IMG/VR virus record: IMGVR_UViG_3300046492_000199
DNA length: 64,000 nt
Reading direction: 5' to 3' (one strand)
From: a virus
Every line of letters starts with the position of its first letter. Position 1 is the stretch's first letter. The translations under genes and the position numbers were made by a program. The notes under the pieces were generated by a model. It had not been told where the DNA came from and made no database searches. It saw only the letters and a list, made by a program, of their open reading frames with translations. Positions 16,382 through 21,947 of this stretch are shown here, in pieces.

Positions 16382-16457
16382 TGGACCGTCTTCCTTGAGT
16401 TGAACAAGGGTATCGCGATCCACAATCGCGCGCTCTAACCAATTGAGCTAAAGACGG
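16382..16457 (-). tRNA. tRNA-His(GTG)
   Basis: Cloverleaf, loop TTGTGGA, CCA; no encoded G-1. Confidence 0.85.
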
Positions 16458-16809
16458 AAGTTTTTAATTTTTCTCTGGCTTTACGTTTATATTGCTTGGA
16501 TTTCTCATTCCAAGCAAGTCGGCAAGCATCACATCTACACTTTCTGTGTCTATACATTCCCATGGTGCCGTGTTCTGGAGCGTGCTTTTCGGTATGACAC
16601 TCGATACATAATAGCTGGCATTTATTTATTTCATCTATCAGAGTGTCCCAAGGATAGGACCAATTAGATGTAACATTAAATTTTTTATTGGTTGGGTCTA
16701 TATGATCTACTTCTAGTGCTTCAGTAGAACCGCAGTGAACACATTTATTTCCTAAATGATTTAATAATTTTTCTTTAAATTGCTTATAGTATTTTACGTT
16801 TTTCTTCAT
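16435..16809 (-). CDS. HNH endonuclease
   Basis: CVHC...LEVDHIDP...CQLLCIECH. Confidence 0.85.
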   Translation of the reverse strand: MKKNVKYYKQFKEKLLNHLGNKCVHCGSTEALEVDHIDPTNKKFNVTSNWSYPWDTLIDEINKCQLLCIECHTEKHAPEHGTMGMYRHRKCRCDACRLAWNEKSKQYKRKAREKLKTSVFSSIG

Positions 16810-17589: not shown

Positions 17590-17780
17590 TAATATAGTTA
17601 TTATCTATTTGACAGGAAGAAAGAGCACTTCTTAAATTCTGTCAAACCAATTTCATTAATAGCTGCTGTAACAGCTGATTTGATTGCGTTGTAAACTGTT
17701 TCGTCGTCCATGTCAATGTCTCCTAACAAAAATAGAACCAGAAAGTGTGCTGCTACGCCAAATTCTCTAAGGGTCTTACG

Positions 17781-17925
17781 TGGCATCTAAGGGGATTCTT
17801 GTCCATACCCTCCCCAAATTAATTCAGAGGCTTCACCCAATGAACGTACCACGTAAACTGCGTAGTCTAGATATTGTTCGCGCAATACCTAAACATCTCC
17901 TTCCCCTGTTGACCTATTCAGACTG
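17781..17925 (-). ncRNA. Candidate structured RNA ending in CCA
   Basis: Closing helix CA(G)TCTGA/TTAGATG then CCA; several internal hairpins. Confidence 0.4.
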
Positions 17926-17999
17926 TGGACCAGAACTGACTTATTCAACTCGAAACTCTTTAAAAGATGGCTGCTCTTAGGCCAACTTCCTTAACTGGT
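17926..17999 (-). ncRNA. 23S rRNA L11-binding-domain (H43/H44)-like RNA with 3' CCA
   Basis: ACCAG...GAAGTTGGCCTAAGAGCAGCCATCTTTTAAAGAGT...CTGGT CCA; 28/33 identity to E. coli 23S 1056-1088. Confidence 0.75.
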
Positions 18000-18003
18000 A
18001 TTC

Positions 18004-18094
18004 TGGCGGAAGGTGCAGAGATTCGAACCTGCGGACCCCTTTCAGGGCCTCCTCTTTAGCAAAGAGGTGGTTTAAGCCACTCACCCAACCTTCC
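18004..18094 (-). tRNA. tRNA-Ser(GCT)
   Basis: Class II cloverleaf, loop TTGCTAA, CCA. Confidence 0.9.
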
Positions 18095-18183: not shown

Positions 18184-18810
18184 TTAAACAATCGTTTCTT
18201 TAATTCCAGCAGCCTTGGCGCGATCTTCGTCACTAAATTCCATAGCGAAACTCAAGCCACTATCTGCCGAAGCATACAAAGCACTACGGTTTGCTACTGA
18301 CTTAAATGCTTGATCGTAATTACCCTTAGTCATATTCAGAGTCGAACCTGACAGAACACCTAGACCGCCGCTCTGACCAAACGCGTCAAAGTCAGCACCA
18401 ATGAAGATAACGTCATAGCCCTTTGTCTTAAAATCGTCAATAGACTTTTTAGCATTATCTTTAGTAATTTCGCGGCTCGCATTTTCAAGGCCGTCAGTTA
18501 CGACTACAATGGTAGCTTTCTTAGGAGCCTTGAGGTGAATGGTCTGAGCCAGAGTGCCAATAGCGTCGAACAAAGGTGTCATCCCGCGCGGCATAACTTC
18601 GTTAGCTGCAATTGGAGTCCATTCCTTGATCTTCACTTCGGAACGAATAACTTTAAAAGGTTCCTGATTGTCAAAAACGGCAACAGTGATATCACCCTTC
18701 TTAACACCATTTTCACTCAAGGCAGCGGCGTAAGCATTTACCGCGCCAATGGTTTCGGTCCAGTTAGAAGACATGGAACCGGATCGATCAATAAGAATAT
18801 AAATCTTCAA
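18184..18810 (-). CDS. von Willebrand factor A domain protein
   Basis: MIDAS DRSGSM, GMTPLFDAI, VVTDGLEN; TTG start at 18810 avoids tRNA-Ser. Confidence 0.85.
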   Translation of the reverse strand: MKIYILIDRSGSMSSNWTETIGAVNAYAAALSENGVKKGDITVAVFDNQEPFKVIRSEVKIKEWTPIAANEVMPRGMTPLFDAIGTLAQTIHLKAPKKATIVVVTDGLENASREITKDNAKKSIDDFKTKGYDVIFIGADFDAFGQSGGLGVLSGSTLNMTKGNYDQAFKSVANRSALYASADSGLSFAMEFSDEDRAKAAGIKETIV

Positions 18811-18826
18811 TTTCGTTCTTTCTATA

Positions 18827-18919
18827 TGGCGGAAGAGGTGCGGATTCGAACCCACGGAACGCCTTTCGACGTTCGCTCGCTTTCAAGGCGAGTGCCTTAG
18901 ACCACTCGGCCACCCTTCC
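18827..18919 (-). tRNA. tRNA-Ser(TGA)
   Basis: Class II cloverleaf, loop CTTGAAA, CCA. Confidence 0.9.
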
Positions 18920-19016: not shown

Positions 19017-19388
19017 TTAAAAATCTTTCTTAGCGTCACGAAGCAGGATCAGTGAGGTATGATTTTCAGGTAGAAAATATTCGTACACAAGATCGATCAC
19101 AACATCTTCGTCATAGTCTTTACAGCTGAAAATGTCAAGATAAAAATCGCCATCTGTTTCGCAGAAGTGGCCCGTAATGTTGGACGTTTCAATCATCTGG
19201 ATAAAAGAAATGCCAGCTTTAACCGGATCATGCGTTGCGAAACGCTCGATCCAGAGCGGGCCGTACTTGATCATATCAATCTTTACAACAAGTTCGTCTA
19301 CGAACTTAGCGATATGGTCCTTAGACGTGATGGCGGGGATAGCCCCCGCTCTTGCGTCGATTACGATATGCTTACCCCAATAGTCCAT
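19017..19388 (-). CDS. speD: S-adenosylmethionine decarboxylase proenzyme family
   Basis: WGKHIVID, IETSNITGH self-cleavage Ser, YLDIFSCK. Confidence 0.82.
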   Translation of the reverse strand: MDYWGKHIVIDARAGAIPAITSKDHIAKFVDELVVKIDMIKYGPLWIERFATHDPVKAGISFIQMIETSNITGHFCETDGDFYLDIFSCKDYDEDVVIDLVYEYFLPENHTSLILLRDAKKDF

Positions 19389-20105: not shown

Positions 20106-20429
20106 TTAGAGAAGTGCTTCAATAGCTGCTTGGACCATTTGATCCGCGCTCTGCTTTGAATTTGCGTATTCTTCTAATGGATCAAGAAGTTCATATTCCC
20201 ATCCACTATTGCCTAATGGGCGCTTGCCGCTAAAGCTTTCACCTTCGTCCCATAACACGGATAGAAGGGTTACGAGATATTCGCGAACCGTGGCAGCGCC
20301 AGCGTCATTTTCTTCTTCATTTAATGGAAGTTCTAAAATTTCTTTGCCGGATAACACTTTAATACTTTCTATTTTTATAATTGGTGCAGCTTCTTGGTTC
20401 CGCCCCAAGCTCTCTTGTGCTTCAAACAA
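20106..20429 (-). CDS. Hypothetical protein
   Basis: 107 aa; LW.EGESFSGKRPLGNSGWEYEL motif. Confidence 0.6.
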   Translation of the reverse strand: MFEAQESLGRNQEAAPIIKIESIKVLSGKEILELPLNEEENDAGAATVREYLVTLLSVLWDEGESFSGKRPLGNSGWEYELLDPLEEYANSKQSADQMVQAAIEALL

Positions 20430-20477
20430 GCGCTTTCACTAGATTAGCTTAAACTGCGAAACTACTAGAAGGGGAAA

Positions 20478-20650: not shown

Positions 20651-21286
20651 TTAATAGGACTTACCGTCTTTATATCGTCTTCGTCTACTATGTCGGCCTT
20701 TACCTACATTTTTAGCTTTATAAGTTGGTGTCATAGCGTGACAAGTAGGGCATAGCAATCTGCAATTCTCTAGTCTATTATCTTTAAAATCCCCATTGAT
20801 ATGATCTATCTCAATAGGTATAACTTCACCAAGTTTATGCGTTTCATGGCACTTAGAACACTCTATCCCATTGTTTCTTATTAAATAGGATTTAATTGTT
20901 ACTGAAGAGGCAGTCCCACTTAAAACACTTAATTCTAGCTCAGAGTTGCGGTTGGCTACAAAACATTTCATAGAGCAAAATTTAGAATTTTTTGTCCTAC
21001 ATTTACAATGAAAACACTCTATTATTGGCCTTCGATCTTTAGGTCTTTGCGGTGGCCCAATTTTATCGTTACTGTGGTCTATTCGTTTGAAATTATTAAA
21101 TGTAGCTCCGCAAGACTTAGAACAAAAATCGTTCTTTCTCTTATAATAAGTTAAAGAATTATTGCACCATTTGCAAATCTTTGGATTTGAGTTATAATCG
21201 TCAATTCGTTTTTGTTTCGCAATAGCATTGGCTAATTTAGATTTTTCCGCCCCTAGACGGCCAGCTTCTGATTTTGTTAGTTTCAT
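20651..21286 (-). CDS. HNH homing endonuclease
   Basis: Cys-rich N-terminus; IEIDHINGDFKDNRLENCRLLCPTCH. Confidence 0.88.
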   Translation of the reverse strand: MKLTKSEAGRLGAEKSKLANAIAKQKRIDDYNSNPKICKWCNNSLTYYKRKNDFCSKSCGATFNNFKRIDHSNDKIGPPQRPKDRRPIIECFHCKCRTKNSKFCSMKCFVANRNSELELSVLSGTASSVTIKSYLIRNNGIECSKCHETHKLGEVIPIEIDHINGDFKDNRLENCRLLCPTCHAMTPTYKAKNVGKGRHSRRRRYKDGKSY

Positions 21287-21871: not shown

Positions 21872-21947
21872 TGGTGCGCCTACGTGGAAACGAACCACGT
21901 TAGGGAGATTTGAAGTTTCCTGCATAACCCATACATGCTCTAGGCGC
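21872..21947 (-). tRNA. tRNA with TCA anticodon (opal-suppressor-like)
   Basis: 76-nt canonical cloverleaf, loop CTTCAAA, perfect 7-bp acceptor, CCA. Confidence 0.75.

Follow-up and report, generated by a model that had tools for sequence, protein, structure and literature searches.

The stretch of viral DNA analysed here (the window; 64,000 nt, IMG/VR record IMGVR_UViG_3300046492_000199) comes from a tailed phage, as it encodes a large terminase, a portal and a tail tube protein; the terminase shares ~41% identity with its counterparts in Microcystis phage Mwe-JY26 and the DSS3P8 group. Its minus strand carries an array of 17 tRNA genes called by ARAGORN (23902-16048), which, bracketed by a near-consensus promoter and a strong terminator (Table 1), looks like one operon. 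Open reading frames (ORFs) are interleaved with the tRNAs at 16435-16809, 18184-18855, 19017-19388 and 20651-21286 (all on the minus strand), and their products are two HNH endonucleases, a VWA-domain protein and an S-adenosylmethionine-decarboxylase-like protein. ARAGORN labels the gene at 21872-21947 (minus strand) as a 'SeC' tRNA with anticodon UCA, which may be an opal-reading tRNA, and a further tRNA-like Rfam match of 39.4 bits, missed by ARAGORN, lies at 20385-20457 (minus strand). At Rfam gathering scores, only tRNAs were matched in the window.

Inside this array lies a 263-nt element (17999-17737, minus strand), a non-coding RNA whose two ends fold back into a near-copy of the GTPase-associated centre (GAC) of 23S rRNA. 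Its extent was set by the pairing of its terminal CUUUCUGGU with its initial ACCAGUUAAG, a closing helix of eight Watson-Crick pairs with one U.U and one bulged U. The 5' core (closing strand, G-G/A-A-N, H43 and UUUAAAGAGU) spans 17999-17955, and the 3' block, UUU-R-GCGUANNAGCACA followed by the strand complementary to the 5' end, spans 17762-17737; between the two, the 1090 and 1091 equivalents are separated by a 192-nt insert with a paired base. These are the features that define the family described below, together with residence in a phage genome and co-orientation with tRNA genes, both of which also apply to the window. An unconstrained minimum free energy (MFE) fold of 264 nt closed the molecule by the same two ends, and the family covariance model (R1) matched 18000-17736 from end to end (43.3 bits, E=1.2e-8 for the 64-kb window), with no second match anywhere in the 64 kb. 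A small ORF with a good Shine-Dalgarno sequence follows the element (ATG at 17711).

Table 1. Features of the element and of the surrounding tRNA array (window coordinates; rRNA numbering refers to equivalents in 23S rRNA).
Feature	Position	Strand	Evidence
Promoter, near-consensus sigma-70 with extended -10, before the first tRNA	23957-23929	-	
tRNA-Ser(gct)	18004-18094	-	ARAGORN
Closing (H42-like) helix, 5' strand ACCAGUUAAG	17990-17999	-	family model and unconstrained MFE fold
G1056 equivalent and H43 hairpin (1057-1081)	17964-17989	-	Rfam LSU model match
A1067 equivalent	17978	-	inside H43 hairpin
Junction UUAAA (1082-1086) and GAGU (1087-1090)	17955-17963	-	same as bacterial LSU consensus
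Structured insert, 192 nt, between U1090 and G1091	17763-17954	-	covarying base stem and subclass helices
UUU-G linker, then H44 loop and 3' strand GCGUAGCAGC-ACA (1091-1103)	17746-17762	-	block conserved in family
Closing helix, 3' strand CUUUCUGGU	17737-17745	-	family model and MFE fold
Terminator, strong, 12-bp, after the last tRNA	16042-16013	-	

That this locus imitates the L11/thiostrepton domain of 23S rRNA beside tRNA genes had been proposed from its first 74 nt, and this core idea is borne out by the family; the anatomy that came with it (a 74-nt unit with a CCA end and a replaced H44) is not, and is taken up further below. The 74-nt minus-strand sequence (17999-17926) had been quoted exactly, and it begins, as described, four nucleotides after the 3' CCA of tRNA-Ser(gct). 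Measured against the true E. coli-type 23S sequence found in another viral contig (L037), the reported identity of 28/33 over the 1056-1088 equivalents, the retention of A1067 and the switch of the 1058:1080 pair from U:A to A:U were all reproduced. Moreover, the sole Rfam match in a permissive scan of 201 nt was to LSU_rRNA_bacteria (model positions 1097-1144, H43/H44; 13.3 bits, E=0.027). Given this match, the 28/33 identity and the preserved A1067, we consider the resemblance to 23S rRNA real. The element is not itself a 23S rRNA gene, as no LSU match reached the Rfam gathering score and its flanks are a tRNA and an ORF; genuine rRNA, as in L037 and L136, has a different appearance. Neither ARAGORN nor the Rfam tRNA model called a tRNA on the element.

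The phage RNA agrees with the bacterial 23S GAC (top of H42, H43 and H44; E. coli 1051-1108) in its helices and in the sequences of its junction and loops, including the H44 loop GCGUA..AGC, and keeps A1067 and A1095. In the window, the H44 loop and 3' strand read GGCGUAGCAGCACA (17759-17746), directly before the closing strand, where the rRNA consensus is GCGUAAUAGCUCA. Unlike its ribosomal counterpart, however, the phage RNA is free-standing, phage-encoded and flanked by tRNAs instead of rRNA, and the family carries an insert of 26-363 nt between 1090 and 1091, an added invariant UUU and, at 1101, an A in place of the U; its closing stem follows no fixed sequence. Position 1061 of 23S rRNA is variable among bacteria, and is likewise variable in the phage family. 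Binding of uL10 (L10), which had also been suggested, is unlikely, given a short H42-like stem that shows no sequence conservation.

The family was collected by scanning IMG/VR with a pattern covering H43 and the junction, which returned 45 loci, one of them true 23S; the remaining 44 shared the core GG-A-N-GUUGGCUUAGAAGCAGCCAUC-N-UUUAAAGAGU and then diverged. A looser pattern returned at least 118 loci, giving, with the window, 120 sequences with 87 distinct flanking sequences among the matches listed. In nearly every locus, a block GGCGUAAYAGCACA was found 30-360 nt downstream, with a strand complementary to the pre-H43 bases directly after it. The two-ended arrangement, with UUU-R-GCGUANNAGCACA as its 3' block, was present in 111 of the 120 loci among the matches listed and yielded at least 82 distinct elements. 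The 3' block was never part of the patterns used for the collection scans, and the loose regular expression that served to locate it constrained some of its positions. R1 was built from 16 short members, and base pairs were counted in an end-anchored MAFFT alignment of 79 full elements (A3); the R1 alignment (A2) was left out of these counts because R1 mis-closes many long-insert members via local ends.

Across A3, standard pairs filled 95.0% of the paired cells, as compared to 72.6% in shuffled alignments, and the covariation score was 0.569 versus 0.143, a value that none of 500 shuffles reached. When the 3' partners were slid by 1-3 columns as a control, the score was at most 0.144. Double changes were seen at all eight pairs of the closing helix among the 79 relatives, the inner pairs of which had also guided the choice of the 3' partner. 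The original prediction had called for a homolog search with a covariation test of H43 and H44; relatives outside rRNA were indeed found, and 1058:1080 covaries (G:C in 34, U:A in 26, A:U in 17 and C:G in 1); 1092:1099 is C:G in 77 and U:A in 2. At the base of the insert, the three innermost pairs (columns 46-48 with 636-638), which played no part in finding the elements, were paired in 97-100% of cases, with 4-6 pair types each.

Conservation in A3 follows the ribosomal site closely. G1091, G1093, U1094, A1098, C1100 and C1102 are invariant and equal to the rRNA consensus, and C1092, G1099 and A1103 are nearly invariant and rRNA-like; the junction UUAAA and GAGU are invariant as well, partly owing to the search pattern, since the invariance of 1071-1090 was built into the patterns. 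A1067 is kept in 71 of the 79 elements and A1095 in 72, and 1096 and 1097 are the sole freely varying bases of the H44 loop. As the A1067 and A1095 tips and 1096/1097 are less conserved than in rRNA, a constraint imposed by the fold or by uL11 fits better than one imposed by translation factors. Taken together, comparative pairing patterns show the element to be a structured RNA under selection, in which the two ends rebuild the top of H42, H43, the junction UUAAA and an H44 that retains its native loop. A separate feature is the invariant UUU before G1091 (A3 columns 639-641; window 17760-17762), which has no rRNA counterpart and could pair with G1087-A1088-G1089 in an alternative fold.

The insert is a variable structured domain that emerges from H44 on its 5' strand. 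The stem at its base reads UUC/GAA in the window, for which subclass relatives have the compensatory UGC/GCA. L045, L006, L005, L103 and L065 form a small insert class with the window; in this class, the segment that directly follows GAGU-UKC-RAG is paired with the nucleotides immediately preceding a conserved GGGGAAGGA: GUUGA:UCAAC in the window (17949-17945/17912-17908), GUGAC:GUCAC in L005, GUGGAU:AUCCAC in L103 and AGCGA:UCGCU in L065. A long helix of GUUUACGUGG (17857-17848) with CCACGUAAGA (17784-17775) likewise shows compensatory changes, as do two further hairpins, and one A:U to G:C double change separates a hairpin of the window insert from its counterpart in L045. Between these two close relatives, identity is 95-96% in the core, 94% in the insert, 88% in the neighbouring ORF and 70% in the downstream DNA. 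The window insert also contains a perfectly paired 30-nt hairpin (17894-17865, minus strand), and its absence from L045 suggests that growth and shrinkage of the insert proceed one complete hairpin at a time.

A scan of the insert against Rfam returned only a chance-level match to EFASI (E = 4.8). Elsewhere in the family, a motif CACCCCGUAACUGGUAAGG with CCG/CGG covariation occurs in the inserts of 18 of the 82 members listed (L001, L032, L049 and 15 others), and a sarcin-ricin-loop (SRL)-like AGUACGAGAGGA occurs in those of two members, L082 and L014; Rfam has a name for neither, and the SRL-like motif is absent from the window's own element. The SRL-like inserts of these two members hint at an imitation of the whole factor site.

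We next consider where the elements reside. At the 82 distinct loci listed, 638 tRNA genes lie on the strand of the element and 4 on the opposite strand. A same-strand tRNA is found within 30 nt at 40 of these loci, typically with a gap of 2-12 nt and in several cases on both sides; it ends at most 30 nt upstream at 27 of the 82, and a tRNA lies at most 30 nt downstream at 23, with unrelated ORFs or nothing elsewhere. Given this co-orientation and these short gaps, the RNA occupies a tRNA slot. No conserved partner gene was found within 4 kb of the 82 loci listed, the only recurrent neighbour being an HNH endonuclease (13/82). Each of five carriers, three of them complete jumbo phages, has a single copy.

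The family is nearly absent from prokaryotes: a discriminating pattern gave 13 matches in 185,579 species genomes. Three of these, 68 nt long and without the insert, were taken to be genuine rRNA, and tRNA-Ala and tRNA-Ile genes adjoin one of the three. The remaining ten obtained scores typical of the family, and about six of these ten are on tRNA-dense contigs. Among cultured phages, megablast and blastn searches with the window region matched only the neighbouring tRNAs. Unannotated copies of the element are present in pf16 (Pseudomonas), XacN1 (Xanthomonas), GAP32 and Aeromonas phage 4_4572; the pf16 copy, with a predicted length of 195 nt, sits between tRNA-Asn and tRNA-Pro, and those of XacN1 and GAP32 are flanked by protein genes. 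Short Staphylococcus, Listeria and enterobacterial records that also came up are presumed to be true 23S and were not counted as members. A match in Paenibacillus phage Pd_22F (L136, MZ092003.1, about 83,900-84,050) was likewise rejected: it is true 23S, flanked by rRNA sequence at either end, and probably represents host DNA that was assembled with the phage or carried in its particle.

Such a case, along with the high rRNA identity of the family, could prompt the reading that the element is a dead fragment of host 23S rDNA acquired by recombination. We find this hardly credible: the element has no flanking rRNA sequence, an insert interrupts the same position at 111 of the 120 loci listed, very different phages carry one copy per genome, the family consensus departs from rRNA (A1101, the UUU linker), and the compensatory changes in many helices already contradict decay. 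Very improbable, too, is the version of the element first put forward, a 74-nt, CCA-ended, tRNA-like RNA closed by ACCAG:CUGGU pairing, in which a new hairpin replaces H44. Both ACCAG and CUGGU-CCA are present, and the MFE fold of the isolated 74-mer does use their pairing, but that fold is no better than those of shuffled sequences (z = 0.44), and the comparative data already contradict it. The H44 block conserved in the family and the strand that pairs with the 5' end are located 190 nt farther along, so that the real 3' half is GGCGUAGCAGCACA with CUUUCUGGU (17759-17737) and the element keeps H44's own loop at its 3' end. CUGGU-CCA, taken for the 3' end and for one side of a CCAG/CUGG closing helix, is internal to the insert, and L005 and L103 have no equivalent of this nearby CUGGU. 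The supposed H44-like hairpin is part of the insert as well: its arm AGUUGA pairs not with UCAGUU but with the UCAAC of the class helix, which covaries in five related elements, and the segment given as 'CUGGUCCA' falls in the variable hairpin region enclosed by that helix. Finally, no CCA is conserved after the closing helix across the family (A3 columns 664-665).

Regarding what the element does, the role we favour, at a probability of roughly 55% and judging from sequence and secondary structure, is that of an imitation of the stalk base that binds uL11 and acts off the ribosome. An isolated 58-nt GAC fragment binds L11 and thiostrepton. In addition, Munishkin and Wool reportedly observed in 1997 that GAC and SRL oligonucleotides bind EF-G in vitro. 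As a stand-alone, trans-acting non-coding RNA of the phage, the element would be transcribed together with the minus-strand tRNA array and freed by the processing enzymes of the adjacent tRNAs. At a tRNA-like abundance, it could bind host uL11 off the ribosome and display the factor-binding face of the stalk base, and uL11, or another recogniser of the GAC site, would be titrated away from ribosomes. No phage-encoded uL11 gene was found in the five carrier records, three of which are complete, and the protein partner would therefore be the host's. The likeliest pay-off would be that the RelA stringent response, which depends on uL11, is dampened as in relC mutants; these mutants, deficient in L11, are relaxed, and the GAC copy might phenocopy relC and silence the stringent response. 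About equally likely would be the soaking up of a GAC-directed enzyme or toxin. Counting against the uL11 reading, uL11 that is already part of a ribosome is hard for a sponge to remove. The broader proposal, that large phages encode a trans-acting copy of a ribosomal centre, made like a tRNA, which captures host uL11 or a GAC-directed factor or toxin and thereby reprogrammes or protects translation, we would put at even odds.

Capture of a toxin could also be the whole purpose of the RNA, its abundant free copy serving as a decoy substrate that absorbs a GAC-attacking ADP-ribosyltransferase, nuclease or similar activity released on infection and so spares the ribosomes. This possibility, which we regard as somewhat unlikely, draws on 1096 and 1097 being the only H44-loop bases that vary freely and on the two members with SRL-like inserts, and it would be in keeping with the fact that phage tRNA arrays counter tRNA-directed defences; against it, we know of no anti-phage system that targets the GAC. 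A toxin aimed at exactly the H44 loop does have a precedent in the bacterial toxin Tre23, which ADP-ribosylates H44 of 23S rRNA within bases 1095-1098 (PMC8661411). However, an RNA without uL11 may be a poor substrate, and the window's element lacks the SRL-like motif. Improbable, in our view, is a purely cis-acting role in the tRNA operon, be it as a scaffold for processing, folding or anti-termination or as an rRNA-mimicking leader of the next gene. The elements are always co-oriented with tRNAs, and in the window an ORF with a good Shine-Dalgarno sequence follows; yet what lies downstream varies from locus to locus, the XacN1 and GAP32 copies lie between protein genes, and a processing signal needs no near-perfect retention of the bases of the uL11 site.

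Several known RNAs resemble the element in part. The autoregulatory leaders of ribosomal proteins, such as that of L10 with its likeness to the L10-binding region of 23S rRNA, likewise mimic a ribosomal-protein site off the ribosome; these leaders, however, are cis-regulatory, lie upstream of ribosomal-protein genes in cellular genomes and are only loosely rRNA-like, whereas the phage RNA has no ribosomal-protein gene nearby, is restricted to phages and is a near base-for-base copy of rRNA. In the window, no ribosomal-protein gene was found downstream of the element and no Rfam leader was matched. The stable RNAs C and D of phage T4, small RNAs of unknown function that are encoded among and processed with the phage tRNAs, are similar to the element as small RNAs among phage tRNA genes; to our knowledge they contain no GAC-like sequence, and the BLAST searches of cultured phages gave no T4-type match. 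ROOL and GOLLD are also large structured phage non-coding RNAs, often near tRNA genes, but have different folds without rRNA resemblance, and neither Rfam model matches the window. Synthetic 'ribosome-in-pieces' oligonucleotides (mimics of the thiostrepton domain and the SRL) also present the GAC off the ribosome, and their SRL versions parallel the SRL-like motif of two family members; these, in contrast, are laboratory constructs, whereas the phage RNA is natural and, judging by its covariation, under selection.

Rfam 15, against which the window, its insert and member L032 were scanned, contains no such family, L032 giving only the match to the LSU GAC. We found no description of a GAC-mimicking phage RNA in the open-access full-text literature, and the accessible part of a catalogue of 10,006 viral structured-RNA candidates makes no mention of an rRNA-like motif. 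Thus, as judged from Rfam 15 and open-access full text, we could not find a description of this large, phage-only RNA family with its two-ended GAC core. If the proposed imitation is true, it would be the first case of a virus encoding an imitation of an rRNA active site. The stalk base is the large-subunit contact of every translational GTPase and of RelA, and it is a point of attack for thiopeptide antibiotics and for at least one bacterial toxin; an abundant, natural, free-standing phage copy of it would bring to light a novel means by which host translation is taken over or shielded. Some of the 'empty' gaps seen in phage tRNA arrays would find an explanation in the family as well. The four cultured carriers, pf16, XacN1, GAP32 and Aeromonas phage 4_4572, make a GAC-mimicking RNA directly testable. 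In XacN1, the copy (L137, AP018399.1, about 150,350-150,590) lies not among tRNAs but directly after a gene annotated as a 2'-5' RNA ligase.
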